DNA of 55,485 nt. Source: Candidatus Sericytochromatia bacterium (GTDB lineage: Bacteria; Cyanobacteriota; Sericytochromatia; S15B-MN24; UBA4093). Positions 24,439-44,796 of this stretch are shown here, one piece after another. How positions within the stretch are numbered: the first letter of the stretch is position 1; every line of letters begins with the position of its first letter. A program made the position numbers and the translations under genes. The notes under the pieces were generated by a model. The model was not told the origin of the DNA, did not search any database, and saw nothing but the letters and a program-made list of their open reading frames with translations. Location of the stretch: assembly GCA_036676495.1 (NCBI GenBank), contig JAKFCT010000057.1, positions 1-55,485 on the forward strand, read 5' to 3'.

Positions 24439-26019
24439 ATGGCGATGGACGACCAGCTTAAATCCCGCGAGCAGCTTATCGCGGAACTCGACCAGCTCCG
24501 GGCCGAACGTGAGACGCTCGACCATCTGGAGGTGGTTCCGGATCAGATCTTTCGGCTTGCCCCCGATTTCACCCTGATCGGCTACCTGGGGGGCAAGGAC
24601 GCCACGCCGATGATTCCCCCCGAGCAATTCCTCGGGCGGCACCTCCTCGAGGTCTTCCCCGGCGCCCTGGGCCGCCAGTTCCTGGCCACCCTCGAAGCCG
24701 CGCAGCAGACCGGTGACGTCCAGTCCCTCGAATACCAGCTCGAGCTCGACGGCCAGTTCCAAACCTTCGAGGTTCGTGCGCTTCGCGCCAGCCACGGAGA
24801 GGTGCTCGCCTTCGTCCGGGATATCACGGAGCGCGTGCGCACCGAGGAGAGCCTTCGCACCAGCCAGCAGCTGCTGACGGACTCTCAGCGGATCGCCCAT
24901 ATCGGATCCTGGCGCTGGGAGCTCAAGACCGGCGCAATCATGTGGACCGACGAGCAGTACCGGATCTTCGGCTACGCCCCCTGCGAGATCATGCCGACGC
25001 CCGAGGCCTTCCTCTCCCATGTGCCGCTGGACGAACGCGAGGGGGTCAAGGGAAAGCTTCTTTCCTCGGCGAAGAGCGGCGAGCCCTACAGCTGCGAGCA
25101 CCACATCGTGCGCCGGGACGGCGAGGTTCGCGTGGTCCTCTGCACCGCCCATGTCCTGCGCGACGCCACCGGCCGCCCGCATGCCATGGTCGGCACCACC
25201 CAGGACATCACGGAACGAAAGGCCCTCGAAGAGGCCCTCAGAGCTCAGAACGACCAGCTCCTGGAGCTGGATCGCCTCAAGAGCAGCTTCGTCAATTCCG
25301 TCACCCACGAGCTGCGCACCCCGCTCACCTCGATCATGGGCTACGCCGAGTTCCTCGAGGACGAGGTGGCCGGCGGCCTCAACCCGGACCAGCACGCCTT
25401 CGTCACCCAGATCCAGCGTGGCGCGGTCCGCCTCGGCAACCTGGTGGACGACCTGCTCGACTTCGCGCGTCTGCAATCCGGAGCCTTCAAGCTCCTGATC
25501 CGAGAGGTCGACCTGGGAGGGAAGCTTGCGGAGACGCTCGACGCCTTGTATCCCCAGGCGCAGGAGGCTCAAGTGGCTCTCGGTCACGCCCTCTGCGCGG
25601 ACCTGCCCGCGTTTCGCGGGGACCCCGAGCGCATCGGGCAGGTGCTCACCAATTTGATCGGAAATGCCATCAAGTTCACGCCCCCGGGAGGGCGCGTCGA
25701 TGTCGCGGTCTCCGTCTCGGGCGGGGAGATCCGCGTGGAGGTCCGGGACACGGGCATCGGGATCTCCCCTCAGCATCAGGCCAAGCTCTTCCAGAAGTTT
25801 TATCAGATCGACCCCAGCACCACCCGCGAGAAGGGCGGGGCGGGCCTGGGGCTTTCCATCTCGAAGGCCCTCGTCGAGGCCCACGGCGGCCAGATTGGCG
25901 TGACGAGCACGCTTGGCGAGGGCTCCTGCTTCTGGTTCATGTTGCCGATTGAGCCTCCGTCCTGCTACTCCGAGCGCTCCTTCAAGGCCCGTCCCTCGGC
26001 GCCTTCGCGCCGGGACTAG
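24439..26019 (+). CDS. Cytoplasmic PAS-PAS histidine kinase
   Basis: Two PAS domains; THELRTPLTSI, NLIGNAIKFT, DTGIGI, GAGLGL. Confidence 0.95.
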   Translation: MAMDDQLKSREQLIAELDQLRAERETLDHLEVVPDQIFRLAPDFTLIGYLGGKDATPMIPPEQFLGRHLLEVFPGALGRQFLATLEAAQQTGDVQSLEYQLELDGQFQTFEVRALRASHGEVLAFVRDITERVRTEESLRTSQQLLTDSQRIAHIGSWRWELKTGAIMWTDEQYRIFGYAPCEIMPTPEAFLSHVPLDEREGVKGKLLSSAKSGEPYSCEHHIVRRDGEVRVVLCTAHVLRDATGRPHAMVGTTQDITERKALEEALRAQNDQLLELDRLKSSFVNSVTHELRTPLTSIMGYAEFLEDEVAGGLNPDQHAFVTQIQRGAVRLGNLVDDLLDFARLQSGAFKLLIREVDLGGKLAETLDALYPQAQEAQVALGHALCADLPAFRGDPERIGQVLTNLIGNAIKFTPPGGRVDVAVSVSGGEIRVEVRDTGIGISPQHQAKLFQKFYQIDPSTTREKGGAGLGLSISKALVEAHGGQIGVTSTLGEGSCFWFMLPIEPPSCYSERSFKARPSAPSRRD

Positions 26020-26022
26020 GCG

Positions 26023-27546
26023 ATGACTGACTCCTCCTGGCCGCACGTGACGGCTGCCCTGCGGGCCCTGAGCGACCATAGCAGCGACCCGATGATCGTG
26101 AAGGACCTGGAAGGGCGCTTTCAGTACATGAACGCCGCGGGGCGCGCCTTCTTCGGCGTCGCTCCCGACGCGGTGCTCGACAAGACCCTGGGGGATCTGC
26201 TCGGGGCCGACTGGGGCTGGGAGGCGCGAGAAACCGATCTTGCGGCGATCGCCAGCGGAGCGCCCCAGCAAGCCGAGCTGGAACTCCCGGATCGCACGGG
26301 ATGCCTGCGCACCTTCACGGTCACCAAGCATGCCGTCCGGGATCCCGAGGGAGCCATCCAGGCGATCGGGCTTCTCATGCGGGAGATCTCCCAGCGCAAG
26401 GAGGCTGAGAACCTCCTCCTGCAGAGCCAGTCCACTTTCCTTAGCCTGCTCGGGTCAGCCTTCGAGGGTTTCGCGATCCATGAAAACGGCATCTTTCTTG
26501 AGGTCAGCGAAGGCCTGGCCCAGATGTTCGGCTATTCGACCGAGGAGTTGATCGGCATGTACGCCGTCAACATCGCGATCCCCGAGCACCGTGAACAGAT
26601 CGTCCAGTACATCCGCACGGGCTACGACAAGCCCTACGAGGCGGAGGGCTTGCGGCCGGACGGGACCCGCATCTATGTCGAGATGATCGGTCGTCCGTTC
26701 TATCATCAGGGGCGCTGGCTCCGAGTCACGGCCTTCCGGGACATTACCGAGCGCAAGCAGCTCGAGGCCACCTTGCGCGAGCAGAACGAGAAACTCAAGG
26801 ATCTCGACCGCCTCAAGAACGGCTTCATCAGCTCGGTTTCTCACGAGTTGCGCACGCCGCTGGCGTCGATCATGGGGTATTCGGAGTTCCTCGAGGACGA
26901 GGTCGCCGGCGCCCTGAACCCCGATCAACAGACCTTCGTGCGCCAGATCGCGGAGGGAGCCCGCCGCTTGCAGCTGCTGGTGGATGATTTGCTGGATTTC
27001 GCGCGGTTCGATTCCGGGGCGTTTCGGATTCACCCGCGGGAGGCCGACCTGGCGGAAAAGGTCGCGGAGATCGTGAACAGCTTGCAGCCGCAAGCGATCG
27101 AGGCGGCGCTTCGGCTCACCGTCCAGCTTCCAGGCGAGGAAGTGCCCCTGGCGTTCGATCCCGAGCGGATCGGCCAGGTGCTGCTCAATCTCTTGGGGAA
27201 CGCCATCAAGTTCACGCCCCGGGGAGGACGCATCGAGGTGCGGCTCCTGCCTGCGGAAGCAGACGTGCGCATCGAGGTGGAGGACAGCGGCATCGGCATC
27301 GACCCGGAGAATCTCCCCAAGCTCTTCCAGAAGTTCTTTCAGATCGACCCCAGCACCACCCGCGAGAAGGGCGGGGCGGGTCTGGGGCTTTCCATCTCGA
27401 AGGCCCTGGTCGAGGCCCACGGCGGCCGGATTGGGGTCGAGAGCCGCCGGGGCGCCGGCTCGCTCTTCTGGTTCACCTTGCCCCGGGGCCAGGCCACCGG
27501 CGGCGTCCCCGACGTCCCCGGAGCTCCGGATCGGATCTCGCGCTGA
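26023..27546 (+). CDS. Cytoplasmic PAS-PAS histidine kinase (paralog)
   Basis: [33 protein letters not shown]. Confidence 0.95.
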
Positions 27547-27907: not shown

Positions 27908-28615
27908 CTAGAGCTTGAAGAGATCGTCGGAGAGCTTGGGATTGAGCGCCATTCCGGAGAGCTGGGCCCGGAAGACCACGGTCGTTCCCTCGAAGCCCTC
28001 GACTTGCAGGGGCATGCGGTTCTGGCGATCGATGGCGAGCTGCATCTTGGAGCATCCGGGCAGCACGCCGGAGCCCTTGGTGACGTCGAGCAGGTCCGCG
28101 GGGCGCCCGGCGATCGTCACCGTGCCGGCATGGCGCACGGAGGCCGCCGGATCCAGGAGGCCTTCGATAATGGAGGTGAGGCTCGTCTGGTCGATCCGAT
28201 AGCCGCGCAGCGAGAGCACCTGCGGATCGTCGTAGGGGAGGGTCCGCTTGATGAAGCCGAGCTTGGCGGTGATGCGGCCGTCGCCGAGGTAGACGAGCTT
28301 GGCGCCGCGCTTGGTGACGGAGTCGGCCTCGGTGATGTTCGCGCGGAGCTTCTGGGGACGGGCCCAGAAGAACTCGGCCTTGCTGGTCGTGGTCTCGCGC
28401 CCCTTCTGCTCGAAGAAGGCCACGACGCCCGAGGCGCTCGTCGTCTTGCTCCAGGTCTGGCGGACGGCTTCCACCACCGCGCCCGCCTGGGCGTCCTTGG
28501 CACGAAGGCCCTGCTCCGAGCCTTGGTTCAGCTGAGGAAGGAACGGGCTGACGCCGCAACCGGTCATAAAGGCGGCCAGGGTGACGCCTGCCAGCAGGAT
28601 TCTGAGCTTTCGCAT
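27908..28615 (-). CDS. LolA-like lipoprotein
   Basis: Lipobox MTGC; FFWARPQKLRA, LAIDRQNRMP, C-terminal NPKLSDDLF. Confidence 0.7.
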   Translation of the reverse strand: MRKLRILLAGVTLAAFMTGCGVSPFLPQLNQGSEQGLRAKDAQAGAVVEAVRQTWSKTTSASGVVAFFEQKGRETTTSKAEFFWARPQKLRANITEADSVTKRGAKLVYLGDGRITAKLGFIKRTLPYDDPQVLSLRGYRIDQTSLTSIIEGLLDPAASVRHAGTVTIAGRPADLLDVTKGSGVLPGCSKMQLAIDRQNRMPLQVEGFEGTTVVFRAQLSGMALNPKLSDDLFKL

Positions 28616-28707: not shown

Positions 28708-29427
28708 TCAGGGGCGCTTCCGGGTGGCGGTGCGGCGCAGCATCATGCAGATCGTGAGCCAGAAGCAAGCGACCAGGGCTCCGGCGACGACGTCGGTGAA
28801 CCAGTGGACACCGAGGTAGAGCCGGCTCCACATGATGCCTGCGGGGATCGCGAGCAGGGCCAGGGCGGCCGGCCAGGTCTTCCGGGGATTCTCCATGAGC
28901 ACGAGCAGGCTCAGGAAGCCGTAGAGGCAGACGCTCAGCAGGGAGTGCCCGCTCGGAAAGGAGTAGCTGGTCTCGGGGGCCAGGCTTTCGAAGAGGGCGG
29001 GGCGGGGCTGCTGGAAGAGCTGTTTCAGGACGACGGTGAGGGTGCCGGCGCCGGCGAGCACGATCATCAGGGTCGCGGCCTCGATCGGCCGCCTGAGCAC
29101 GGCCAGCAGGGTCAGGACGCCGCCGGCGATCAGCAGGCTTCCCATGATGCCCCCGAGGGCGCTCAGGGACAGGGCCAGCTGATCGAGCCAGGGGGAGGCA
29201 TGCGCGTGAAGCAGGTGGAGGATGGCATGGTTGAGGGTGGTGAACTCTCCCTCGAGGACGTCCTCGGCGAGGCTGGCGAAGAGGCCCAGCAAGGCGAGCG
29301 CCATCCCCCAGCCCAGGGCGTAGAACCATCCCAGGCGTCGGATCAGGCGGAAAAGGCCTGCGAGAGTGGCCGAGAGGATCCCGCTGAGGGTGCCTCCTCG
29401 GGGGCTAGGGCTTTCGGGCGGTTTCAA
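28708..29427 (-). CDS. PAP2 family phosphatase
   Basis: KQLFQQPRP, SFPSGH, SRLYLGVHWFTDV. Confidence 0.92.
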   Translation of the reverse strand: MKPPESPSPRGGTLSGILSATLAGLFRLIRRLGWFYALGWGMALALLGLFASLAEDVLEGEFTTLNHAILHLLHAHASPWLDQLALSLSALGGIMGSLLIAGGVLTLLAVLRRPIEAATLMIVLAGAGTLTVVLKQLFQQPRPALFESLAPETSYSFPSGHSLLSVCLYGFLSLLVLMENPRKTWPAALALLAIPAGIMWSRLYLGVHWFTDVVAGALVACFWLTICMMLRRTATRKRP

Positions 29428-29598
29428 GGGATGGGGACTCCGATCGACATGAGGGCCCTTTTATTCAACCACGTCCGAGCGCTTGAGTCGGGTGGGGGAG
29501 GGAAAAGCTAATCGGATTGAAACCTGGAGTTCATCTTGCGGAGGCAAGGAGCCCGTAACCTGGGGGGCGAAGGCGTTCCGACGAGAGAGGAGAGAGCG

Positions 29599-29820
29599 AT
29601 GCGACGCTGGTTGATGGTCATGGTGGCCGGGACGATGCTGCTCACGGGCTGCGTCACGCACCATACCTACCGCTCGGAGGCCCCGGGGCATTACAAGGGG
29701 TACTACCTCCAGGATGGCACCTACGTGAAGGTTCATCCGAAGAAGAGCTACGTCCAGGGCTACGTGCTCAGGGACGGGCGTCACGTCAAGGTGCACCCGA
29801 AGAAGGGCAAGAAGAAGTAG
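29599..29820 (+). CDS. Small basic lipoprotein with tandem GY.L.DG..VKVHPKK repeat
   Basis: Lipobox LTGC; two 18-aa repeats; GAGGAG RBS. Confidence 0.7.
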   Translation: MRRWLMVMVAGTMLLTGCVTHHTYRSEAPGHYKGYYLQDGTYVKVHPKKSYVQGYVLRDGRHVKVHPKKGKKK

Positions 29821-29830
29821 CTTGCCAAGC

Positions 29831-29912
29831 AAAAAGGTCCCCGTCTTGCGACGGGGACCGGAGGGGCTGATTGACCGTCCTCGCTTCCACTCGTTTCAGG
29901 TCTCACCTCTCT
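29831..29912 (-). ncRNA. Putative ncRNA E1
   Basis: Box 29948-29964, -10 TACCTT 29919-29924, TGAGACC-N18-GGACGG, GGTCCCCGTC-GCAA-GACGGGGACC-T5 terminator. Confidence 0.65.
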
Positions 29913-29947
29913 ACCTTTAAGGTAGCGGATCAGGGCCACATGCTCCA

Positions 29948-29964
29948 TCCGTAGTTGTTACTGA
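29948..29964. promoter_or_regulatory. Palindromic TCCGTA-N5-TACGGA box (E1)
   Basis: TCCGTA GTTGT TACTGA, 23 bp from -10. Confidence 0.65.
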
Positions 29965-30021
29965 AACTTTGCGGGCGGCTTTGCGGGTTTTTCATGCCTG
30001 AAAGCCGCTTTTCGTGGTCCC

Positions 30022-30156
30022 GGAGAAGGCGCCGGCCCCCGCTGAAACAGCGGGGGCCGCGTTGGTGAATATTCGGTTGGTTTCGACCAGTGGCTGATTC
30101 ATGGTGACGGGTGGGGGCCCGTCCAGTGAACGCTCCTTTCGGGTCTCAACGCTGAC
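30022..30156 (-). ncRNA. Putative ncRNA E2
   Basis: Box 30192-30208, -10 TACGGT 30163-30168, TGAGACC-N17-GGACGG, GGCCCCCGCTG/CAGCGGGGGCC hairpin. Confidence 0.55.
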
Positions 30157-30191
30157 GAACCTACCGTACCTCCGTCCGGTCACGGCGGCTA

Positions 30192-30208
30192 TCCGGAGAG
30201 AGTACTGA
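30192..30208. promoter_or_regulatory. Palindromic box (E2)
   Basis: TCCGGA GAGAG TACTGA, 23 bp from -10. Confidence 0.6.
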
Positions 30209-30251
30209 TGTTTAATCAGGCGAGCGTCACGAAGTCATGGCGGGGCGTTCG

Positions 30252-30411
30252 GGAGAAGGGTGGCCCCCGCCAGGGCTGGCGGGGGCCGGAGGGGCTGTTT
30301 GACCCGTTGAAGCGTGATGACAACGCGGCGGTGTCGATTGAGCGGCCCGGGTTACGGGTGCTGGGTGTTTGACCGTCCTCTTGGGTTCGGTTTTAGGGTC
30401 TCACCCCTCGC
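30252..30411 (-). ncRNA. Putative ncRNA E3
   Basis: Box 30446-30462, -10 TACGTT 30418-30423, TGAGACC-N18-GGACGG, GGCCCCCGCCAG/CTGGCGGGGGCC hairpin. Confidence 0.65.
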
Positions 30412-30445
30412 ATGCTTAACGTACCACCGCGGCGCGATCCAGGCA

Positions 30446-30462
30446 TCCGCACGGACTACGGA
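30446..30462. promoter_or_regulatory. Palindromic box (E3)
   Basis: TCCGCA CGGAC TACGGA, 22 bp from -10. Confidence 0.65.
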
Positions 30463-30481
30463 ACTTGCGAGCGTGCCGGGA

Positions 30482-30916
30482 TCAGGTGCCGCCCAGCCTT
30501 GCGAGCAGCCAGTAGACGGCGCCGAGGGCGAGGAGAGCGACGGCGAGGGTCAGCATGGCGTTGCGCATGTTTCGGGCCCATGGTCGGGGCGTCAGCACCA
30601 TGGTTTTCGGGCTGGCGACCCAGCGGATCACCTTCCCGGCGTCGTTCTGGACGGGGAAGAAGCCGGCGACCGTGCCGTATCGCGGGTAGCGCCCATCCTT
30701 TCGCTGGATGACGACGGGCTGCTCGTCGCTGGCGAAGTGCTGATCCCCACGGTAGGTGGCGGGGACGGGGAGGATGACGTAGGGGAAGCCCTGGGATTTC
30801 GGTTCTTCCGGGAAGCGGAAGCGCGCTCCGACGGGAAGGGAGCCGAGGGGGAGGGTTCGGGTCAGCATGGGAGGCCTCATCGGAGCGGGCGTCTGGGGCG
30901 CGGGTCGCGCGTCCAT
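30482..30916 (-). CDS. Hypothetical protein with C-terminal membrane anchor
   Basis: 144 aa; beta-rich core and C-terminal TM; lies between E3 and E4. Confidence 0.65.
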   Translation of the reverse strand: MDARPAPQTPAPMRPPMLTRTLPLGSLPVGARFRFPEEPKSQGFPYVILPVPATYRGDQHFASDEQPVVIQRKDGRYPRYGTVAGFFPVQNDAGKVIRWVASPKTMVLTPRPWARNMRNAMLTLAVALLALGAVYWLLARLGGT

Positions 30917-30928
30917 GCTCATCCTAGC

Positions 30929-31067
30929 AAAAAAGTCCCCCGCCGGGATCGGCGGGGGAGCATGAGGCGTATCGACCTTCTTTAACCTTAGTAAGGCTAC
31001 GTGGCGGGGCTCCCAGGTGGGTGCTTTACCGTCCTCAGAGTCACTGATTGAAGGTCTCAGCTCTCTC
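30929..31067 (-). ncRNA. Putative ncRNA E4
   Basis: Box 31102-31118, -10 TATGAT 31074-31079, TGAGACC-N18-GGACGG, TCCCCCGCCG/CGGCGGGGGA-T6 terminator. Confidence 0.65.
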
Positions 31068-31101
31068 CCTTTCATCATACCCACGCTTTTTGGGGCAACA
31101 C

Positions 31102-31118
31102 CCCGTGGAATCTACGGA
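31102..31118. promoter_or_regulatory. Palindromic box (E4)
   Basis: CCCGTG GAATC TACGGA, 22 bp from -10. Confidence 0.55.
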
Positions 31119-31359
31119 TCTTTGCCGGAGGTGCGAGGCCGATTCCCGTCGGGGCTGAATCGAGGGATATGGCGGGATTTTCGCGCGGATGCGCGCCAGG
31201 CCGGCCCGATTGGCCGCATCGGGGCGAAATCCCCGAGGATTCTCACCTCGAGAGGATCCTATGGTTTGATTCGCTGAAATCGACAGACAATATTGTCCAT
31301 TGCTTCTCGGCGCGAGACTTGTTACCCTTTTTGATAGAGACGTGTTAGAGGAGGGGAAA

Positions 31360-31716
31360 ATGCCTCGAGTCAAAAGTGTTGCTACCATTGAAAAGCCGGT
31401 TTCGGGCTCCCCTAAGGGGCGCCGGGCCAAAGCGTTTGAGACCGGCGAGGCGGTCGTCACCCAGCGTCGGCCCCGTCGTTCGCCCTATGACGTGGTCAAG
31501 GAGCTCAAGGCGCGGCGTGAGGAGCTGGCCCAGACCTACCAAGCGCGTCTCGCCAAGCTCGATCTTCGCATCGAGCGTTTGGAGGCCCGCTACGAAAAAA
31601 AGATCATGGTGACCCAGTTGCTCAACACCCGGACGCCTGAGGAGCTGGAGCGCGAGCTGGCCGCGGTCAAGAAGCAGCAAGCGATCCTCAAGAAAGCCCT
31701 CAAAACCCAACGGTAA
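31360..31716 (+). CDS. Basic coiled-coil hypothetical protein
   Basis: GAGGAGGGG RBS; Lys/Arg-rich N-terminus, heptad-rich C-terminus; hairpin follows at 31734-31765. Confidence 0.7.
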   Translation: MPRVKSVATIEKPVSGSPKGRRAKAFETGEAVVTQRRPRRSPYDVVKELKARREELAQTYQARLAKLDLRIERLEARYEKKIMVTQLLNTRTPEELERELAAVKKQQAILKKALKTQR

Positions 31717-31859
31717 CGGCCTTCCGACGCGTCGAGGCCCGCCGGCTCTTTAGCCGGCGGGCCTTCGGCTTGAAGGGCTTGGCGTCCGAGCGTTGATATT
31801 GCTTCATTAATCGCGGGTAAGGTAGGCATGGCAGTCCCGGAAGTGATGCGGGGGAACGG

Positions 31860-32231
31860 ATCATCAGGATTCTGGTCGTCGATGACTCGCGCTTCGCGCG
31901 GGAACTGGCAGTTGAGATCATCACGGAGCAAGGCTGGAGCGTGGTCGCGGAGGCCCAGAACGGCTATGAGGCGATCGCCAAGTACCGCCAGTACCTCCCG
32001 GACCTCGTCGTGATGGATATCAACACCCCGGAGATGGACGGCCTCTCCGCCCTGCAAGAAATCAAGCAGCAGTTTCCGGACGCCAAGGTCCTCATGTGCA
32101 CGGCTCTCGGCACCACGGATAACCTCAAATCCGCCCTGGCCCTGGGCGCGGCCGATTTTGTGGTCAAGCCCTTCCTCAAAGAGCGCCTGGTCATGGCCAT
32201 CCAGCGCATCCACCGTCAGCGGAGCCACTAG
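31860..32231 (+). CDS. Single-domain CheY-like response regulator lacking a canonical in-frame start
   Basis: IRILVVDDS.., PDLVVMDINTPEMDG, CTA, DFVVKPF; frame closed by TAA at 31818 with no ATG/GTG/TTG before the domain. Confidence 0.8.
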   Translation: MIRILVVDDSRFARELAVEIITEQGWSVVAEAQNGYEAIAKYRQYLPDLVVMDINTPEMDGLSALQEIKQQFPDAKVLMCTALGTTDNLKSALALGAADFVVKPFLKERLVMAIQRIHRQRSH

Positions 32232-32689: not shown

Positions 32690-33067
32690 ATGACCATTCA
32701 TTACCTGCACACCAAGCTTCAAGTGAGCGACCTCGACGTCGCCATTCGCTTCTACGAGAACGCTTTCGGCTATGCGCTGCGCAGCCGGCGTCCCGGCCCC
32801 CAGGACAGCGAGATCGCCTTCATGCGCCTCCCCGACGAGGCCACCGAAATTCAGCTCTGCCGCTATCCGGAAGAGGATGTCGTCGTCCCCGAGCGGCTCA
32901 TGCACCTGGCCTTTCGCGTGGACGACCTGGACGCGGTCCTCTCGGGGGCGCTGGCGGCCGGGGCCTCCCTCACCTCCGAGCCCTACACGCTGCCTTCGGG
33001 CTCGCGCGTGGCCTTCATCCGGGATCCTCAGGGGTACGATATCGAGCTGATCCAGAAACCCGAGTAA
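32690..33067 (+). CDS. VOC family / lactoylglutathione lyase-like protein
   Basis: YLHTKLQVSDL..FY, HLAFRVDD, FIRDPQGYDIELI; TAGAAT 6 nt before ATG (possibly leaderless). Confidence 0.88.
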   Translation: MTIHYLHTKLQVSDLDVAIRFYENAFGYALRSRRPGPQDSEIAFMRLPDEATEIQLCRYPEEDVVVPERLMHLAFRVDDLDAVLSGALAAGASLTSEPYTLPSGSRVAFIRDPQGYDIELIQKPE

Positions 33068-36150: not shown

Positions 36151-36495
36151 GGATATCCCCTGAGTGTGTCGAATGCGGCTAAACGTGCTATTTCAGCATA
36201 CCCTGCCGCGAATAAGGCAGGCAATTGCTCAGTTTCAGGGTGGCAAGGGTTTCTATCTGAGTAAGTGTCGTCCGCTGGCAAATCTGACCCGAGGGGGTAG
36301 ACGAAGCTAATCGCAGGCTGGCTTTTCGAGATGATGTAGTCCTTGGTCTGCTGCCCTAAACATTGGGCGTTACAAATCCTGCAACTTGTTGAATGATGAC
36401 ACTAGGGATATCACTACCAAGACAAAGGGGAGACCATTCTCTTGATTGCCGCAACACCCCCAACCCCCTCACTCCCCTCATCCTTGGATCCGCTC

Positions 36496-37137
36496 ATGGA
36501 CTTAATCACGGGCCTTTTTTGGCTGGTCATCCTCCTGGGAATCGGAATGATCGCCTTGAGAATCCTGAGTCGCAGGCCGGGAGTGTTAGGAAAGGTTTCA
36601 AGCATCATTCTAGAAGTGCTGGCAGAGGCGGGAGGAGGGCGCTCTCGAAAGCCTTCGTCTCGGAGAGCACTCGAGCGGGCGTATGAAAAGAGTTCAAACC
36701 TCTCATCGGAGGATTTCCCTTTCAAGGTAGACTCAAAGGCCTACTTCTTCACTAAATCTGAGGGCATTTTCTATCCCGAAATCGTGAAAGCCGCCGCAGA
36801 ACTTGAACTGTTGGTTTTTCCAAAGGTTGGCCTATGCGACATCTTCATTGACAAGCGAGGCGCCGATCGCAGTCAACATGCGCGGTACTCGCAGATGCAC
36901 GTAGACTATCTGCTGGTGCGCAGATCAGATTATTCACCCGTTGTAGGCATCGAGTTGAACGGGGCGAGCCACCTTGCCGAGAAGCAGCAATCGAACGACC
37001 GCAAGAAGAAGGCGGTTTTCGATGCGGCAGGTCTCCCGCTGGTGACCTTTTACAATCAGCCCTCTTATTCGGCGTGGGAGGTTCAGACGAAGTTGCAAGA
37101 CGTACTAGGCCTCAACTACCGTCCGAGCAGCCGTTAG
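36496..37137 (+). CDS. DUF2726 domain protein
   Basis: N-terminal TM; T.SE..FY, VFPKV.L.D, HVDYLL, IELNG.SH, D..K..VF..AGLPL. Confidence 0.8.
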   Translation: MDLITGLFWLVILLGIGMIALRILSRRPGVLGKVSSIILEVLAEAGGGRSRKPSSRRALERAYEKSSNLSSEDFPFKVDSKAYFFTKSEGIFYPEIVKAAAELELLVFPKVGLCDIFIDKRGADRSQHARYSQMHVDYLLVRRSDYSPVVGIELNGASHLAEKQQSNDRKKKAVFDAAGLPLVTFYNQPSYSAWEVQTKLQDVLGLNYRPSSR

Positions 37138-37141
37138 CAAC
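37124..37141 (+). repeat. 18-bp direct repeat copy 2
   Basis: CGAGCAGCCGTTAGCAAC overlapping the DUF2726 stop. Confidence 0.8.
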
Positions 37142-37186
37142 CTCACGGTCGGAGGGAGATCACCCGTACGCCGCATCGAAGCGCGG

Positions 37187-37266
37187 TATGGCATTCTAAG
37201 AGCATCAACCACACCACCCCTCTCTGAGCCGAGCCCGCCGGTCACACCCCGGCGGGTTTTCCCTTT
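37187..37266 (+). ncRNA. Putative small RNA, family F copy 2
   Basis: TATGGCATTCT..ACCACACCACCCCTCTC..GAGCCCGCCGGTCACACCCCGGCGGGTTTT. Confidence 0.55.
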
Positions 37267-37438
37267 GATTTGCCTAAAAAGCCCCTTTAATTGCCGACAG
37301 GCACTAAGACACTTACAGGCATTTTTTCGCCTGCTCTAGAGGCACCAGCATGGTCTGAAAGGCTTCCGTTCGATGGTCTGACCCTCGCCGAATTGCTGGG
37401 TATGAGACAAGAAGCGTCACCATCAAATGGGGGGAACG

Positions 37439-37678
37439 ATGCGGATTCTCGATAACGACACGAACAGAGCATTGGCTAACATCTCCGTCTTTCTAACCCC
37501 AGCGGATGCGAAGGAGATGATCGGGTATTTGGAGCACCTTCTCGAAGAGCCTCTTCTGCATCATGCTCACCTGAGCGACGAGGAATACAAGCGAGAGATC
37601 ACGCTCGCCGTTTACTCGGAATCGAACCTGAACGAGTTCGACGAGCGTTCCAGAAAGCTCATCATTGAAGGTCAGTAG
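37439..37678 (+). CDS. Small acidic hypothetical protein
   Basis: GGGGG RBS; 79 aa MRILDNDT.. Confidence 0.65.
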   Translation: MRILDNDTNRALANISVFLTPADAKEMIGYLEHLLEEPLLHHAHLSDEEYKREITLAVYSESNLNEFDERSRKLIIEGQ

Positions 37679-38555
37679 CAGGCTCAGCTTGGAGAGGCAT
37701 AAATTTGCCTACAACAGTAAGGACTTGCTAGTGCAAAAGCTTGAAGATTTAAGCCCATTTGAGTGGATAGAGAATAGCCTCCCGCCCGCACCCAAGAAGT
37801 TCGAAGCTGAGGTCGGCATTACGGTATCCGACTACCTGCCACCCAACTTTCAGGCCTACTGTAAGATCTTCCACCCCATCTACGTCGATCTTTCCGTCAA
37901 AGATAAGCACCTGGCCTGGGATGAGGAAGCCCGAAGGCAGTCTACTGAACTGCCCCATGATTTACCCCCTGAGATTAGGCCCGTTTTGGCGGAGATGCAA
38001 TCACGGGCAACATTGATTTGGGGATTGCCAGACGAGCCGTTTGAGGGGAAGAGGATTCTGTGGAAGGAAGTGGCACGTGAGTACGGCCTGCACTTTCATC
38101 CTGAATTTAGTGAAAGGTCGCTGACAAGCAGTTTTCCAACGCGAAGTTGGCCTCGTTACCTCATTGGGCCTGATGAAGGGCTATTAGATGCAGAGAGCAC
38201 GCACCAGCTCATTCTTCTACTAACGCCGTTTACCGGTAGGCAAGAGTGCTTCTTCTATTATGACAACTTTGCCACACGGAAAGTCGAGACGCTCATTTAC
38301 CGAGGTGCTCTTGAAGAGGTTGCTGATTTCGTTGCAGGAAACCGAGTAGTCTTTGGAACGCCAACCTACTGGTGGCCAGGGGATCGAAGTTGGTGTCTGA
38401 AAACGGATTACGACTCTACGTTCACTCTGGTGGGAGGATCGCAACAGCTTGTTCAGACGATACTCGCTGACCGTGTTTTGGAGGCAGTTGAAGTCTTACC
38501 TTCAACAAGGATCGACGGTCACGCCGACCAAATCAACTTCGAGCGCCAAGGTTAG
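37665..38555 (+). CDS. Hypothetical protein (C-terminal WWP.DRSWC..TD.D motif)
   Basis: 296-aa ORF; start uncertain. Confidence 0.7.
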   Translation: MKVSSRLSLERHKFAYNSKDLLVQKLEDLSPFEWIENSLPPAPKKFEAEVGITVSDYLPPNFQAYCKIFHPIYVDLSVKDKHLAWDEEARRQSTELPHDLPPEIRPVLAEMQSRATLIWGLPDEPFEGKRILWKEVAREYGLHFHPEFSERSLTSSFPTRSWPRYLIGPDEGLLDAESTHQLILLLTPFTGRQECFFYYDNFATRKVETLIYRGALEEVADFVAGNRVVFGTPTYWWPGDRSWCLKTDYDSTFTLVGGSQQLVQTILADRVLEAVEVLPSTRIDGHADQINFERQG

Positions 38556-38910
38556 AGCGGAGCTTCATGGCGTCTACAGCATCGGGCTTGCGGAAGGCGA
38601 GTTACCGCCCGAGCCAGATAACTGCTCGGTTAACGTATGGGCTGACATTGCCCCAGTCGGTAAACCAGGCGCGGAACAGTTCGTTTTCGAAGTTTGCACC
38701 CCGCAGTATCTCCAAGAGCACATCAAAGGAATTGACTATCGCTTCGGAAGGCACCTGCTCATTGTCGAGAATTTCAGCTGGCCGCTCGTCAGGAACGCCA
38801 TCGAAAAGATCTGCCACACCTTTGAGGGGGACACGTGGGATGAAGTCGCCAACAAGATAGGGCGCTACGGATACTGGGAATTTGAGGATTACCGTCCCTC
38901 CAGCGAGTAG
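38551..38910 (+). CDS. Imm8-like immunity protein; start codon unclear (GTT at expected position)
   Basis: RAEL.., F.F.VCTP..L, GRHLLIV, GDTWDEVA.KI.R...WEFEDY. Confidence 0.7.
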   Translation, partial: VRAELHGVYSIGLAEGELPPEPDNCSVNVWADIAPVGKPGAEQFVFEVCTPQYLQEHIKGIDYRFGRHLLIVENFSWPLVRNAIEKICHTFEGDTWDEVANKIGRYGYWEFEDYRPSSE

Positions 38911-38977
38911 CGGTACCCTGTCTGCCAGTGTAGTTGAATCTTGTCTGAGCTATGTTTCCGCTGAAGAAAAAGACCTA

Positions 38978-39166
38978 CTAGGTCTCCCCGGCGGATCTCG
39001 ATGAAACGCGTTTCGTTTCATTCCGAATACGAAAATTCCTCCCCAGCTTCTTGGCTGGCATCTTACCCCCCCTTATCCACCTGAAGCAGATAGTCCTGCC
39101 GATCCCAAGCTCCTTACTGGCTTCAACGGTTGATAAATACTCGCTTTGGCTCTTCGTCTCCACCAC
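38978..39166 (-). pseudogene. Excisionase-family (HTH_17) DNA-binding remnant
   Basis: YLSTVEASKELGIGRTICFRWIRGGKMPAKKLGRNFRI; 3' end runs into a repeated hairpin element. Confidence 0.65.
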
Positions 39167-39463
39167 CGTAGAAGCGAATGCAGTACGAACATAGAGTTCT
39201 TTCCTCCGGAAGTGAAGCAGCACCACGGAAGCTCAATTAATCACAAGCATGTCCAGGCCGTATTGTTTGCTGCATATTTTTCCACGTCAATAATTTGCGA
39301 CAGTATAGCCGTAAGCCAAGTAATTGAGCGCGTCTAAAGTTCTGTTACTGGTTCAAAATATTGGACTTTCAAATGGTGTGGCGTTTGGTGTACAACTGAG
39401 TGGCCGCATAATCTATGGGGTGCTTTATTGGCAGGCATAGAACCAGAACGCAGAAGGAAAGAA

Positions 39464-41296
39464 ATGAGACGCATTACACTCCTAATCACCGCTACGCTTT
39501 TAGCATCAAGTTGTTCGCTTCGTCCTACGCCGCATCAGGTGGTCACTCTAGCGAATGACCACCAAACAGCCCTTAGTCAGTACCATAAACCGCTCTCACC
39601 CGAAGAACTTTCAGAGATTTCTCGTCGCCTACAAGCACTTAAGACACAGCAAGAGCACGGTGACTACTCCGTGCAAGCATCAAAGCCGAAATACGCATAC
39701 AAAGGCATTCCAGGTCACCGTCACATTGATCAATTTTCGAAAGATGAATTAAATAAAGCTTCAGAAAATGAGCTAGTCGTAATTTTATTTGATAATGCAA
39801 AATTGGATAAACTTAGGTATAGGTTGGCTAATATGGGGTATTTCATTAGTGATTATTATTATGACACAATAATTGTACGCCTTGCGGATTCCGGGGAAAT
39901 CGGCATAAAAAAACATTTTAAAATATTAGAAGGCTTCCCAGAGGTAAAGGTAGTTTCACCGAGGTTCTATATAGATGCTTCTTTAAATAGCTCTGATGCA
40001 AATTTGCCGGCTCAATGGGGGGTAAGTCGGATTAATGCTCAAACTGCTTGGGAGTATCCTGGAATTCGTGAGTCTACGTTTAAGATTGCCATGCTTGATA
40101 CAGGAGTCGATTGGTTTCATGGTGATTTATCAAGCAAAGTTTCTCCAGATAGTATAAGGATTGTTCGTAATACTTCCGCGGGGCACCCTCAATTTGCTTA
40201 CGATGTGTATGATCAGAACGGTCATGGAACTCGTGTAGCTGGAATTGCAGCAGCAGCGACAAATAATAGTTTAGGAATTGCAGGGGCTGGATGGGGTTCG
40301 CTCATTCTGGCGCTTGCTACTGAAGAGCCAATAGGGGCCGATAATTTTCCACACGATTTTCTTAGGTATGCAACCCAGCTTGCGACTGAAAAAGGCGCTA
40401 AAGTTATCAACCTTAGTGCCCGTTCAACTGTGGATTCATGGATGTTGAGAGATATGGTTGCCAGAGCAGAAAGTAGCGGAATTCCAATAATTTCAGCATC
40501 AGGCAATGATAACTCCGCAAGTTTATATTACCCATCTGGATATAATAATCAGAACATTATTTCTGTCGGTGCTATCGACGAGAGTAATAACAGGGCTTCA
40601 TTTAGTAACTACGGTCCAAGTCTTGATCTTGTTGCGCCAGGTACAAATATCCTCAGTACAACAAAATACAACACCTACTCTTCTGCGTCTGGAACTAGCA
40701 TGGCTGCCCCGTTTGTCTCAGGCGCTTTTGCCAGTCTTTGGTATGCTTGCCGGGCATTGCCTTACGGGCAAATTCGAGATGTTCTATACATGACGGCAAT
40801 TAAGCCCAGTAATTATACTTTTACCAATGATTTTGGTTGGAATCAAGAAGTCGGATATGGGATTTTGAATTTTGGGAACGCGGCTAAATTTTTGCTTGAT
40901 TCAGGTGTAGTTTATCAATGGAGCACATCTGTGCGCGGTATTACGGCTTGGTCGAACAATCCGGCAGAGAGCTTTTCTGGGACATACCAGCGCATGAAAT
41001 TTGGATTAAGTGTCACGCAAGTTCCAGGTACAGTTCCTGTCTACCGTCGTTACTATCCCCCTAACGGTGACCGAATACTGACGACGGATATTAATAAAGA
41101 TAGTTATTACGATTATGAAGGCATTATTGGATATATTGCACAATCTCCTTTACCGTCAGAGGGAATGGTTCACGCATTGCACCATTTCTGGAAAGCAGGG
41201 CAAGGTCATTACTACACCACAGAGTATTCGGAAAGCGATTACCTTTTTAGTAATGGGTGGAATTACGCTCAAGTTATGGGATATGTTCGTTACTAA
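39464..41296 (+). CDS. S8 subtilisin-family lipoprotein protease with C-terminal aromatic-rich domain
   Basis: Lipobox LASSC; LDTGV, GHGTRVAG, SGTSMAAP; tail VYRRY..HYYT; strongly AT-rich. Confidence 0.92.
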   Translation: MRRITLLITATLLASSCSLRPTPHQVVTLANDHQTALSQYHKPLSPEELSEISRRLQALKTQQEHGDYSVQASKPKYAYKGIPGHRHIDQFSKDELNKASENELVVILFDNAKLDKLRYRLANMGYFISDYYYDTIIVRLADSGEIGIKKHFKILEGFPEVKVVSPRFYIDASLNSSDANLPAQWGVSRINAQTAWEYPGIRESTFKIAMLDTGVDWFHGDLSSKVSPDSIRIVRNTSAGHPQFAYDVYDQNGHGTRVAGIAAAATNNSLGIAGAGWGSLILALATEEPIGADNFPHDFLRYATQLATEKGAKVINLSARSTVDSWMLRDMVARAESSGIPIISASGNDNSASLYYPSGYNNQNIISVGAIDESNNRASFSNYGPSLDLVAPGTNILSTTKYNTYSSASGTSMAAPFVSGAFASLWYACRALPYGQIRDVLYMTAIKPSNYTFTNDFGWNQEVGYGILNFGNAAKFLLDSGVVYQWSTSVRGITAWSNNPAESFSGTYQRMKFGLSVTQVPGTVPVYRRYYPPNGDRILTTDINKDSYYDYEGIIGYIAQSPLPSEGMVHALHHFWKAGQGHYYTTEYSESDYLFSNGWNYAQVMGYVRY

Positions 41297-41312
41297 CAAG
41301 TAGTCGAGAATC

Positions 41313-41343
41313 GAGGCCTGCTAGTCATTGATCAGCAGGCCTC
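41313..41343 (+). terminator. Hairpin after S8 gene
   Basis: GAGGCCTGCT..AGCAGGCCTC. Confidence 0.6.
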
Positions 41344-41380
41344 CGCATTTCCGAATGTTATATCCCTCCTAAATTGAAAT

Positions 41381-41522
41381 ACTTATGGGTGTTTTTCACT
41401 CGTCCAAGAGGTTCCTGCATGGTCTGAGTGGCATCCGAAGGAATTCCCCCTATCCAAAATCAGCGACTCCCATGCCTCAAAGCAGGACAGCGGGAAGGTT
41501 TGGCCGAAAACGCAATAGTTTA
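41381..41522 (+). repeat. Degenerate ~140-bp intergenic repeat H
   Basis: Aligns with 43278-43412 and partially with 37311-37363. Confidence 0.75.
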
Positions 41523-41583
41523 GAAAATTGATTCTTAGATAATACCTCGTTATTTGTTTGGTTTTTCTGGGGACGTAGCACAT

Positions 41584-43107
41584 ATGAGAGCCATTTTTGA
41601 TGCCGCCAGATTCCTACGCTTACTCGCTTTGACGCTAACCATTGCGACAGGCGTGACAGCGGCAATACCGCCTTATCGCTCTCCCTTTCAATTGCCCATA
41701 ACCCTCGGCTGTATTGCTCTGGCATTCGTCATCTTTCGCTTGAAGCAGCCGCTTTGTGATATCGAGGCGAAGCTTGGAAGCCCCCGTGAAAAGCACAATC
41801 GAGGCGTCGAATACTATTACGGGCTTGGAGTAGCTTTAGACTACGAGAAAGCCTTTAGCTGGTTCAGTGCGGCGGTTGAAGAGGGCTTAACGCTAGCTAA
41901 TTTTTCCCTGGCAATCATGTACGAACAAGGCAAAGGTAGACACAAGGACTTGGCCGCAGCGATTGATTTGTACGAGAGCAGCGCAAAGGATGGGTTTGGC
42001 CCAGCGATGCTTCATCTTGGTAGTTTTTATGAGCGAGGCGAGGTTGTGGCCAAGAATCCCGAGGTGGCCATTTCTTGGTACAAGAAGGCCGCTGAGCAAG
42101 GCTGGCCCGAGGCCCAGGTAACTCTCGGGGTCAAGAATGAGTACGGAGTAGGTACCCAAATTGACTTCTCTGCCGCGCACGCCTTGTACGAGAAGGCCGC
42201 AAACGCGGGGTGCGCCGAGGCATTCTTTCATCTCGGCAGACTTAGCGAAATGGGCAAAGGCGTTGCAAAGGATCTAGAGAAAGCCGTTGATCTGTATCAC
42301 AAGGCAGCCAAGCGGGGCAGCACCGATGGCATGACCGCTCTTGGGTACAAGCTTTACCATGGCGTCGGAATACGTAAGAGCCGAAGGACTTCAGTACGTT
42401 GGCTGACAAAAGCCGCCGAACAGGGTAGTGAACTGGCTTGCTATTACCTGGGCGCGATCCACCAGCAGTCTGGTACAGAGAGAGGACTCGCTGAAGCTCT
42501 ACGCTGGTACCGCAGAGCGGCAGATAGAGGCTATGCAGACGCACTTGCACTTGCTGGTCGAATAGAGGAGAACCTTTCGGAACGAGGGCTCTCTGGTTTT
42601 CAGCCGTTCGAGACTTTCCAGGAGGCAGCTCGAAACGGCAGTAGTCTTGGGATGTACGAACTCGGCAGGTATTACCTAACCGGTAAGCATATTAGCCAAG
42701 ACTATCCCGAGGCGTTGAAGTGGTTCCGGAAGTCAGCACGGATTGGCAATACCGACGCGAAAACCAGCTTGGGAACGATGTACGCTGAAGGGCTTGGAGT
42801 CCCCAAGAACCTCCTTGCTGCGAGGAATCTGTTTGAACCTGCTGCCAATGTGAACAACTCAACAGCACAGTTCAGCTTGGGAGAACTGTTCGCGAAGGGC
42901 TTTGGTGTTGAGAAGAGTCTGATCACCGCGTTGAAATGGTACTTGATTGCCGCTGCTCAAGGAGATGACGACGCTCGAGAAGCTGCTGACCGATTGAGCA
43001 CAGAGATGGACTCCGTCCAAACCGAAGATGCCCGACGCCTTGCCTTGAGTTGGAGAGAAGCGCATCCAGTAGAAACGGCTATCTGGCCGCCCTACCCGTT
43101 GGTGTAA
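41584..43107 (+). CDS. Sel1-like repeat protein with N-terminal TM segments
   Basis: Many A...LG..Y..G.GV..D...A..WY..AA.QG repeats. Confidence 0.92.
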   Translation: MRAIFDAARFLRLLALTLTIATGVTAAIPPYRSPFQLPITLGCIALAFVIFRLKQPLCDIEAKLGSPREKHNRGVEYYYGLGVALDYEKAFSWFSAAVEEGLTLANFSLAIMYEQGKGRHKDLAAAIDLYESSAKDGFGPAMLHLGSFYERGEVVAKNPEVAISWYKKAAEQGWPEAQVTLGVKNEYGVGTQIDFSAAHALYEKAANAGCAEAFFHLGRLSEMGKGVAKDLEKAVDLYHKAAKRGSTDGMTALGYKLYHGVGIRKSRRTSVRWLTKAAEQGSELACYYLGAIHQQSGTERGLAEALRWYRRAADRGYADALALAGRIEENLSERGLSGFQPFETFQEAARNGSSLGMYELGRYYLTGKHISQDYPEALKWFRKSARIGNTDAKTSLGTMYAEGLGVPKNLLAARNLFEPAANVNNSTAQFSLGELFAKGFGVEKSLITALKWYLIAAAQGDDDAREAADRLSTEMDSVQTEDARRLALSWREAHPVETAIWPPYPLV

Positions 43108-43158
43108 GAGGGATCTCCACGTGGCAAAGAAAGCCCCTAACTTCCCGAACCGCCTGGG

Positions 43159-43238
43159 TGTGGCATTTTAAGAGCATTAACCACACCACCCCTCTCTGAA
43201 TCGAGCCCGCCGGTCACAACCCGGCGGGTTCCTCTTTT
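43159..43238 (+). ncRNA. Putative small RNA, family F copy 3
   Basis: TGTGGCATTTT..ACCACACCACCCCTCTC..GAGCCCGCCGGTCACAACCCGGCGGGTTCCTCTTTT. Confidence 0.55.
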
Positions 43239-43277
43239 GAGCTTGTTTATAACCCGCTCATATCTTGAGATACCGAA

Positions 43278-43412
43278 AGGTGTTTTTCCGCCCACCCAAT
43301 AGGCTCCAGCATGTTCTGAAGGGCAACGAGGAGAATTTGCTCTGTCCATAATTTGCGACTCCCATACATCAAAGCCAGACAAAGAGAAGATTTCGGCGAA
43401 GAGCATTAGTTC
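43278..43412 (+). repeat. Degenerate repeat H copy
   Basis: Shared blocks GGTGTTTTTC, AGGYTCCWGCATGKTCTGA, GCGACTCCCAT, TCAAAGC. Confidence 0.75.
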
Positions 43413-43519
43413 AATAGAATAGAAGATTAGATGTATTGATGGTGTATCGTTAGGTGTGTAGCTGGGTGTGCAGCGTAACTAGATAACCAACAACACATGA
43501 TGGCCAGAGGGGTTTCCCG

Positions 43520-44149: not shown

Positions 44150-44382
44150 ACAATCAACGGCCCACCTAGATTCTGTAGGCCTTCCTAAGCACGTCGAAGG
44201 ATACTGGTACCCCATCGAGTTTCCGATCGTGCCGCTTCTGGGATTGTTACTGGGGGCGATCGTCTTACTTGTTTTGAGGCGCCGAAGAAAATTGCGTTGA
44301 CGTGGCGAATACCACCCTTGATCGCATTGCTCCAGGGAGTAGCAAGTTGGCTCGTCGTAAAGCTAATCCGCAAGGGGAACAA

Positions 44383-44730: not shown

Positions 44731-44796
44731 CAAGCCATCCCATGGTGGTAATGAATGTCCGAAAGAAGAAGACCCGCAAAGCCTCCAGGGATGCCA

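Follow-up and report, generated by a model that had tools for sequence, protein, structure and literature searches.

A tandem array of predicted small structured RNA genes with a shared scaffold and paralog-specific segments in a non-photosynthetic relative of cyanobacteria

Introduction

What is encoded where two hexamers recur four times around a segment that keeps its length but not its sequence? This question is raised by a 55,485-nucleotide contig (JAKFCT010000057.1 of assembly GCA_036676495.1; this whole stretch is called the window in the following) from Candidatus Sericytochromatia bacterium. A preliminary description had drawn attention to the hexamers GAGACC and GGACGG, and had proposed a hairpin displaying a programmable loop, with a decoy for the RNA-binding protein CsrA or a DNA element as alternatives. 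Here we argue, at a rough probability of 0.6, that the four copies are tandem, independently transcribed genes on the minus strand and represent, together with a fifth copy elsewhere in the genome, a new family of small structured RNAs of ~85-160 nucleotides (nt), which would be sibling trans-acting small RNAs (sRNAs) of one regulon.

The repeated unit

A pattern search for GAGACC-N{15,20}-GGACGG returns exactly four matches in the window, all on the minus strand within 1.2 kb and with intervening segments of 18, 17, 18, and 18 nt (Table 1). Dinucleotide shuffles of the window contain 0.06 matches on average, and four were reached in none of 100 shuffles. The constant motif around a length-conserved segment is thus confirmed in four copies, with segments identical to those quoted before. 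Throughout the 4.14-Mb source assembly (G000, 92% complete; other genomes compared are named G001 etc., and C-numbers denote contigs) the bare pattern matches 28 times versus 11 times for a backwards control, and an nhmmer profile of 108 columns retains five of the 28 as true relatives, namely the window copies, here called E1 to E4, and one on contig C10. These five have expectation values (E) of 1e-18 to 1e-22, and the next match has E 0.078. Their similarity extends ~70 nt upstream of the hexamers, over a palindrome and a -10-like box, and up to ~130 nt downstream, over a second GGUC, a C-rich strand, and a GC hairpin. The repeat is longer than the two hexamers, which are just its most conspicuous part, and its units start 244, 254, and 656 nt apart and are 55-70% identical in their shared parts.

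All units follow the same order. A palindrome-like site, TC(C/A/G)GTA-N5-(T/C)(A/C)CGGAT with TCCGTAG-N3-CTACGGA as best copies, lies ~45-65 nt 5' of GAGACC and is followed after 21-22 nt by a TAnnnT box (TACCTT, TACGGT, TACGTT, or TATGAT), which is usually preceded by GG or G; GAGACC begins 14-15 nt 3' of this box. On the other side, GGACGG is followed by TnAACACC, a variable stretch, the second GGTC, a short A-rich junction, and a C-rich run (CCCCTC or a variant), and directly 3' of this run each unit has a GC-rich hairpin. A terminator scan identifies the hairpins of E1 and E4 as minus-strand intrinsic terminators with T-runs, and those of E2 and E3 are without a clear T-run. Among 19 homologs, the 8 bases 3' of the hairpin hold 2-7 T (at least 4 T in 14 of the 19) and the 8 bases 5' of it 0-3 A, which is a better guide to the transcribed strand than wobble pairs. 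The units look like sRNA genes in every predicted respect: they show the promoter architecture (22 of 22 aligned units), terminators, covariation, varied neighborhoods, and no coding potential. An element acting at the RNA level from the minus strand, with a conserved scaffold and a paralog-specific, length-conserved segment that is predicted to be single-stranded, is upheld.

Secondary structure and covariation

In the predicted fold, GACC is the 5' strand of a helix P2 (GACC plus 0-3 further bases, paired with GGUC), and the GA of GAGACC lies in a conserved asymmetric internal loop (UGA opposite AAnCA). Beyond this loop, the purine run 5' of UGAGACC pairs with the C-rich run 5' of the terminator in an outer helix P1, which closes the RNA. 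Both helices change on their two strands together when homologs are placed side by side. P2 reads GACCC/GGGUC in E3, GACCUG/CAGGUC in the C10 copy, GACCUUC/GAAGGUC in E4 and G002d, GGCCUUC/GAAGGCC in G006a, GCCUG/CAGGC in G003a, and GAGACC/GGUCUC in G006d, and P1 occurs as GAGGGG/CCCCUC, AGAGG/CCUCU, AAGGAGG/CCUCCUU, GAAGAG/CUCUUC, AAAGAG/CUCUUU, and GAGnGC/GCCUC. The P2 partner in E3 and E4 is the second GGUC ~70-90 nt downstream, and in E1 and two orthologs it is a GGUC overlapping GGACGGUC; the proximal GGUCAAACACCC resembles a duplicate of the distal GGUC-AAACA-CCCCUC. GGACGG belongs to GGACGGUnAACACC, the most conserved internal element.

P1, P2, an inner GGCG/CGCC hairpin, and the terminator were encoded in a structural covariance model, R2, and all matches were re-aligned with Infernal. 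In an alignment of 18 sequences, pairing comprises 88.3% of the cells versus 79.1% for shuffles, and 14 pairs are changed on both sides versus 7.2 (reached in 0 of 500 shuffles). With 25 sequences the values are 89.2% versus 79.2%, and double changes occur in 18 of the 25 modelled pairs versus 7.8 (again 0 of 500). Compensatory pairs are found in all helices of the latter alignment (P1 5 of 6, P2 3 of 6, inner hairpin 2 of 4, terminator 8 of 9), and sliding the 3' partner by 1-3 columns as a control lowers pairing to 42-55%. E2, its ortholog G002c, the degenerate G002e, and one further weak G002 match (E 0.003-0.016) were omitted from this analysis. An alignment-free check points in the same direction: cognate 5' and 3' ends form duplexes of -16.6 kcal/mol versus -13.9 for non-cognate ends, and for the most divergent members the own partner ranks best or second-best of 19. 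Furthermore, the unconstrained minimum free energy (MFE) folds of E3, E4, and the C10 copy contain both P1 and P2, and E1 matches R2 with E 5e-7. In E2, the divergent form, GGACGG is the 5' arm of a GACGGG/CCCGUC hairpin in the MFE fold, and its tentative P1 (GCGT/ACGC) is replaced by GCGGT/ACCGC in the ortholog G002c.

This predicted fold differs from that of the preliminary description for three of the four copies. There, a hairpin with the variable segment as its loop had been drawn, in which GACC pairs with GGTC or GGTA and the flanks pair as GGGTG/CACCC or GCT/AGC. The hairpin stands for the short form E1, where GACC/GGUC encloses a loop of ~22 nt and fits the family model. In the long forms (E3, E4, and most homologs) the quoted pairings are present in the sequence but do not covary; there GAGACC covaries with the distal GGUC, and P1 closes the RNA. 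An inner hairpin (A/G)AGG...CCU(U/C) around ACGGUnAACA can be drawn by eye in about half of the long forms, with shifts in register and uncounted. For the proximal hairpin in the long forms of the 25-sequence alignment, 72.7% of the cells are paired versus 73.0% in shuffles, and double changes amount to 2 versus 1.8, so as an alternative conformer it is possible but unsupported.

Two known motifs were considered and rejected. In a kink-turn, a bulge of 3 nt precedes tandem sheared G.A/A.G pairs; at the P1-P2 junction, inspected by eye, UGA stands opposite AAnCA, and the bulged strand has CA where GA is required. A hammerhead-like CUGANGA in E4 and G006a is not conserved in G002d and has no Rfam match.

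Promoter architecture and candidate regulon

The palindrome and the TAnnnT box occur at fixed spacing in all 22 aligned units, two of which (in G006 and G007) precede open reading frames (ORFs) with ribosome-binding sites instead of RNAs. A scan for sigma-70 consensus promoters finds none on either strand of 29000-32000, and the proposed promoter would therefore be non-canonical in its -35 region. The palindrome is centered at about -43, ~31 nt before the -10 box. A site centered near -41.5, the absence of a -35 box, and a -10 box of the form TAnnnT characterize class II activators of the CRP/FNR/NtcA kind. Such promoters resemble the ones described here in the palindrome at a fixed 21-22 nt before TAnnnT, in the missing recognizable -35 box, and in controlling a gene set in common. 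They differ in the site itself, which here is the 17-bp, base-centered TCCGTAG-N3-CTACGGA and not TGTGA-N6-TCACA or GTA-N8-TAC. From this architecture we infer that the palindrome is the site of a dimeric activator, which may govern a stress/redox regulon.

A profile of the promoter finds further sites before protein-coding genes of G000, among them C37:35496, C103:20320, C14:124951, C19:2025, C23:14753, C33:46380, C66:35176, and C22:22658. At these recurrences the site reads TCCGTAG-N3-CTACGGA or TCCGTAGTTTnCCCGGAT, with TAnnnT 21-22 nt later. According to Pfam, the genes behind the sites encode two Usp proteins, a cytochrome c', a ferredoxin, a rhodanese/metallo-beta-lactamase protein, two chemoreceptors, sensors with PAS/GAF and histidine-kinase domains, a secretin, and others. 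Most sites score weakly (E>0.01), and the membership of single genes in the regulon is therefore uncertain. A second sRNA-like unit lies on contig C77 behind the same palindrome and a TATCCT box. Its predicted RNA of ~80 nt is closed by GAGGGGG/UCCCUC and ends in a strong terminator with UUUUU, and it contains neither GAGACC nor GGACGG.

Distribution of the homologs

The family is narrowly distributed. A sequence-only covariance model of promoter and core, R1, was run on 61 genomes and gave matches in six of the nine other genomes of the same taxonomic family, the one in G007 being promoter-only, and in none of the 51 genomes from other families of the order, class, and phylum. R2, which was run on all 27 genomes of the order, found homologs in five of the nine other family genomes and, among the remaining 17 of the order, one marginal match (E 0.002) in G013 of a neighboring family. 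This marginal homolog carries GAACGAG and CGGTCGGATCAACGCC and may mark the outer limit of the family. In the congener G002 the tandem array recurs with its order unchanged and with only a bare P1 hairpin as counterpart of E3. On contig C31 of G002 there is also a divergent relative that has GAGGTC for GAGACC, keeps GGACGGTAAAG, ends in a strong terminator, and has no counterpart in the window. In a metagenome collection, the pattern TGAGACC-N16-20-GGACGG-N2-3-AACACC occurs at 47 loci. Seven of these were confirmed by R2 at E<=0.001, and all six confirmed members with enough upstream sequence have the palindrome and the -10 box.

At gathering thresholds, Rfam 15 recognizes in the whole window only a tRNA, and in the region 29400-31500 it gives seven weak matches at E<=10, none of them near its gathering score and the best with 19.1 bits versus a threshold of 35. 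This best match is CRISPR-DR56 (E 1.9), a single copy outside any array and probably due to chance. Full-text searches, judged by their listings, returned no paper on regulatory or small RNAs in non-photosynthetic relatives of cyanobacteria. That the source organism belongs to a non-photosynthetic class of the Cyanobacteriota follows from the distribution of photosystem reaction-centre genes: several of them are carried by each of seven large genomes sampled from another class of the phylum and, among the named controls, only by Synechococcus elongatus, but by none of the 47 genomes of its own class.

The variable segment and its candidate targets

The variable segment between P2 and GGACGG is purine- and A-rich, and no fold pairs it consistently. 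In E1, the segment and GAGGACGG are identical in three species of the genus (including G001 and G002), with differences in P1, the junction, and the terminator. E2 and its ortholog have the first 9 nt of the segment in common, and between E4 and its ortholog 9 of 24 positions differ. Among the seven metagenome members, recognizable themes such as UGAAACGAG, UGAAAGAAG, and UGCAACGAA recur with point drift. This partial conservation among orthologs together with point drift means that the segment evolves as the seed or linker region of an sRNA does, and not as exchanged spacers or guides.

Because of the analogy to known sibling sRNAs and because of this conservation pattern, base-pairing in trans is the most likely mechanism. 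In such a scheme, a dimeric activator at the palindrome would co-regulate the RNAs with a gene set of the stress/redox type, and the RNAs would act in trans. The single-stranded, paralog-specific segment together with GAGGACGGU would contact the targets, and the most likely ones are pyrimidine-rich and lie close to the start of mRNAs that encode proteins of the envelope or of respiration. As for the scaffold, it may provide stability, present the segment, or serve as a handle for a protein.

Candidate mRNA targets exist, but they are not significant. For E1, the first is a perfect complementarity of 17 nt to codons 4-9 of a cytochrome c lipoprotein gene at G000:C82:10731; 15 of these nt are kept in G002, where the protein is 54% identical. 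The second is an 18/19 match in the 5' untranslated region (UTR), just upstream of the ribosome-binding site, of an outer-membrane-type gene (Phenol_MetA_deg family; G000:C82:123237, minus strand), and the third a 13+3-nt match that abuts the ribosome-binding site of a gene for a 46-amino-acid membrane protein (G000:C36:54136, minus strand) and is partly kept in relatives. Complementarity of the segments to 52 tRNAs is at chance level, with shuffles at least as good in fractions of 0.09-1.0, and the 16S universal primer motif has no site in the assembly. The comparison of the segments with genome and tRNAs that the preliminary description had recommended thus yields no significant complementary targets beyond chance, except weakly for E1 against the genome.

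Several observations weigh against the proposed family of trans-acting sRNAs. As to targets, exact k-mer matches (k=11-16) between the complements of the five segments and the remaining genome do not exceed reversed controls except for E1, and part of the E1 complementarity (ACCGTCCTCGC) reflects the common coding of T-V-L-A in hydrophobic segments. Duplex energies were compared with shuffles for E1: over 12,196 start regions preceded by a Shine-Dalgarno sequence, the best duplex has -33.7 kcal/mol versus -27.7 to -32.5 for 11 shuffled seeds, which is a narrow lead, and the strong sites are not enriched (6 sites at or below -27 kcal/mol versus 3-41 in shuffles). The site in the 5' UTR of the outer-membrane-type gene is partly kept in G002 and weak in G001. 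Moreover, Pfam finds no Hfq (PF17209) in the 92%-complete genome. As to structure, Infernal built the covariation alignments by fitting the sequences to the model, a procedure that favors the structure. When RNAalifold was given a plain MAFFT alignment, nothing but the inner GGCG/CGCC hairpin and the terminator emerged. P1 and P2 were missed there because their 3' strands are misaligned by MAFFT, and the structure was therefore entered by hand into the covariance model and the sequences were re-aligned. The MFE fold of E1 alone contains neither P1 nor P2, and E2 and its ortholog fit R2 poorly (E 0.016 and 0.0067). Finally, the modelled pairs comprise 18 G-U versus 15 A-C, which alone is insufficient to fix the strand, and the transcription start sites and 3' ends of the units are predictions only.

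Alternative explanations

Among the other explanations, a protein-binding sponge has to be considered first, in which the scaffold or the GGA-containing GAGGACGG would sequester CsrA or another RNA-binding protein, with the segment as just a linker. A CsrA gene is present in G000 (75 bits) and in 26 of the 27 genomes of the order, a GGA within (A/G)(A/G)GGACGG is retained in every copy as part of the most conserved element, several co-regulated siblings would suit titration, and the evidence for mRNA targets is weak. However, E1 to E4 and the C10 copy have one or two GGA per RNA. Known Csr/Rsm decoys have roughly 5-20 GGA motifs, mostly in hairpin loops. The csrA gene lies in a flagellin-FliW-CsrA-FlhF cluster, and we know of no sRNA sponge for CsrA of the FliW partner-switch type. 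The protein is found irrespective of the RNA, as it also occurs in four family genomes and in 16 of the order's 17 other genomes, in all of which the RNA is marginal or was not detected, so that there is no co-distribution. The E1 loop, moreover, is identical in three species amid varying flanks, which suggests a sequence-specific use of the supposed linker. The decoy proposed earlier is weakened by the low number of GGA motifs and by the position of csrA beside fliW, and we regard it as unlikely. The cluster itself is an observation in its own right, as it places flagellar genes and a FliW-type CsrA in a non-photosynthetic relative of cyanobacteria.

Very unlikely, in our view, is an RNA of scaffold plus address, in which the clamp of P1, loop, and P2 and the invariant GGACGGUnAACACC recruit an unlinked protein and the 17-18-nt segment programs the target. 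If true, a non-photosynthetic cyanobacterial lineage would possess a guide-type system that lacks a linked effector gene. Guide-like RNAs in the stricter sense, with a constant scaffold bound by a dedicated unlinked effector and a segment of ~17 nt that programs a nucleic-acid target, have slightly less to recommend them and are very doubtful. The constant and covarying scaffold, a segment of 17-18 nt in the window that differs between paralogs, and the conserved asymmetric loop flanked by P1 and P2 as a possible protein site would fit. However, 15 of 33 ORFs scanned at 12 homologous loci have a Pfam match, none of which is common to the loci and none a nuclease or Cas protein. The neighbors comprise a transposase pair, a hydrolase, a permease, a glyoxalase, kinases, an ATPase, and others, and since no protein gene is common to the 12 neighborhoods, a linked effector is unlikely. 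The 41 ORFs of the window include no Cas or nuclease family either. Furthermore, the segments are partly kept among orthologs and drift by point changes instead of being replaced wholesale, they show no complementarity to tRNAs beyond chance and none to the genome except weakly for E1, and a promoter and terminator for each unit do not suit the processing of an array. The programmable guide envisaged before is thus unproven. A CRISPR array was rejected, as the spacing is irregular, the shared parts are 55-70% identical, and the scanned ORFs include no Cas protein or nuclease.

We consider it highly improbable that the units are cis-acting leaders (riboswitches or attenuators) which control a downstream gene on the same strand. 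The E4 terminator lies 60 nt before a conserved ORF of 128 amino acids, an arrangement that is kept in G002, but behind E1 lies a convergent gene, behind E2 and E3 the promoter of the next unit, and the C10 copy and the homologs stand in unrelated contexts with no common downstream gene. The DNA-level element (hexamers 17-18 bp apart as -35 and -10 of an alternative-sigma promoter or as bipartite operator) can be rejected almost entirely: despite promoter-like spacing and a plus-strand TTGACC at the GGACGG end of two of the four copies, there is no consensus promoter site at the locus, and on the minus strand the GGACGG of E1 has the terminator hairpin 15 nt behind it and no gene. Covariation links the bases next to GAGACC to a distant partner in the manner of RNA helices, for which a protein-DNA site gives no explanation, and every unit is preceded by a separate promoter architecture that is better conserved.

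Comparison with known RNAs

Families of sibling sRNAs such as Qrr1-5 of Vibrio, LhrC1-5 of Listeria, the NsiR1 array of Nostocales, and CcsR1-4 of Rhodobacter likewise consist of short paralogous genes, each with an own promoter carrying the same upstream site and an own terminator. They also agree in size (~85-160 nt), in the lack of coding potential, and in the narrow taxonomic range; here, four genes are arranged head-to-tail. The Rfam comparison gives no match in sequence or structure, as those to NsiR1 and CcsR1 are at chance level (E 1.6 and 6.2, far below the gathering scores). Known sibling families mostly share the seed, whereas the paralogs described here have the scaffold in common and differ in the presumed seed, and the 5'/3' helix pair that closes the RNA is unusual for families of this type. 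CsrB and RsmX-Y-Z are similar as multi-copy small RNAs with an upstream palindromic activator site, conserved GGA, and CsrA in the genome, but here the one or two GGA are located at a stem-loop junction or in a stem, CsrA lies beside FliW, and there is no Rfam match. CRISPR RNAs and trans-activating CRISPR RNAs (crRNA/tracrRNA), OMEGA/TnpB RNAs, and C/D-box sRNAs also place a constant structured part beside a variable segment of conserved length. In contrast to these guide RNAs, identical repeats, regular spacing, a linked effector, and matches to foreign or host targets are all absent here, and the weak Rfam matches to C/D-box RNAs are at chance level (E 1.5-3.2). A bacterial Y RNA/Ro system was rejected, since Ro/TROVE (PF05731) was not found in the 92%-complete G000 and the Rfam scan gave no Y_RNA match.

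Genomic neighborhood

The coordinates of the units, of neighboring genes, and of loci mentioned above are collected in Table 1. Two adjacent genes for PAS-domain histidine kinases lie upstream of the RNA cluster, and a histidine kinase gene is also found directly upstream of one homologous RNA gene in G003. Convergent with E1, and having the hairpin in common with it, is a gene for a predicted lipoprotein of 73 amino acids with a duplicated motif and no Pfam match; the same gene adjoins the E1 ortholog in G002. On the other side, genes for a DUF2726 protein, a subtilase with DUF5648, and a Sel1-repeat protein precede the tRNA gene and may form an island.

Table 1. Positions of the RNA units and of further features discussed in the text. 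Coordinates without contig refer to the window.
Feature	Coordinates	Strand	Details
E1, short form	29826-29964	minus	palindrome 29947-29964; -10 TACCTT 29919-29924; predicted RNA ~29913 to 29826
E1 motif match	29875-29904	minus	variable segment 29881-29898; GGACGG 29875-29880
E1 helix P1		minus	5' GAGAGG 29906-29911; 3' CCCCTC 29861-29866
E1 helix P2		minus	5' GACC 29899-29902; 3' GGTC 29873-29876, overlapping GGACGG
E1 terminator hairpin	29836-29859	minus	followed by TTTTT; terminator scan
E2, divergent form	30030-30208	minus	palindrome 30191-30208; -10 TACGGT 30163-30168; predicted RNA ~30157 to ~30030
E2 motif match	30119-30147	minus	GAGACC 30142-30147; variable segment 30125-30141; GGACGG 30119-30124; distal GGTC 30085-30088
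E2 tentative P1		minus	GCGT 30149-30152 with ACGC 30059-30062
E2 GC hairpin	30033-30059	minus	without T-run
E3, long form	30254-30462	minus	palindrome 30445-30462; -10 TACGTT 30418-30423; predicted RNA ~30412 to ~30254
E3 motif match	30373-30402	minus	variable segment 30379-30396; GGACGG 30373-30378
E3 helix P1		minus	5' GAGGGG 30404-30409; 3' CCCCTC 30289-30294
E3 helix P2		minus	5' GACCC 30396-30400; 3' GGGTC 30301-30305
E3 GC hairpin	30262-30287	minus	
E4, long form	30928-31118	minus	palindrome 31101-31118; -10 TATGAT 31074-31079; predicted RNA ~31068 to 30928
E4 motif match	31029-31058	minus	variable segment 31035-31052; GGACGG 31029-31034
E4 helix P1		minus	5' GAGAGC 31060-31065; 3' GCCTC 30964-30968
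E4 helix P2		minus	5' GACCTTC 31050-31056; 3' GAAGGTC 30974-30980
E4 terminator	30936-30959	minus	followed by TTTTTT
Two PAS-domain histidine kinase genes	24439-27546	plus	
Weak CRISPR-DR56 match	29487-29523	plus	
Predicted lipoprotein gene	29599-29820	plus	motif Y.QGY.L.DG..VKVHPKK, duplicated
Conserved 128-amino-acid ORF	30482-30868	minus	
Possible island	36442-45657		
tRNA gene	45586-45657	minus	
Fifth copy	G000:C10:61076-61175		
Second sRNA-like unit	G000:C77:~28460-28604	minus	
Flagellin-FliW-CsrA-FlhF cluster	G000:C23:32632-35784		
Divergent relative	G002:C31:~32923-33019	minus	
Marginal homolog	G013:C61:53408-53535	minus	

Implications

Rfam 15 has no model for this family, and the analysis provides both a covariation-supported family of predicted sRNAs and a usable covariance model for it. 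The common promoter architecture would tie the RNAs to stress/redox genes, and a few target candidates are available. A constant scaffold combined with a variable segment is unusual among siblings; otherwise, the RNAs would represent a new family of ordinary bacterial sRNAs.

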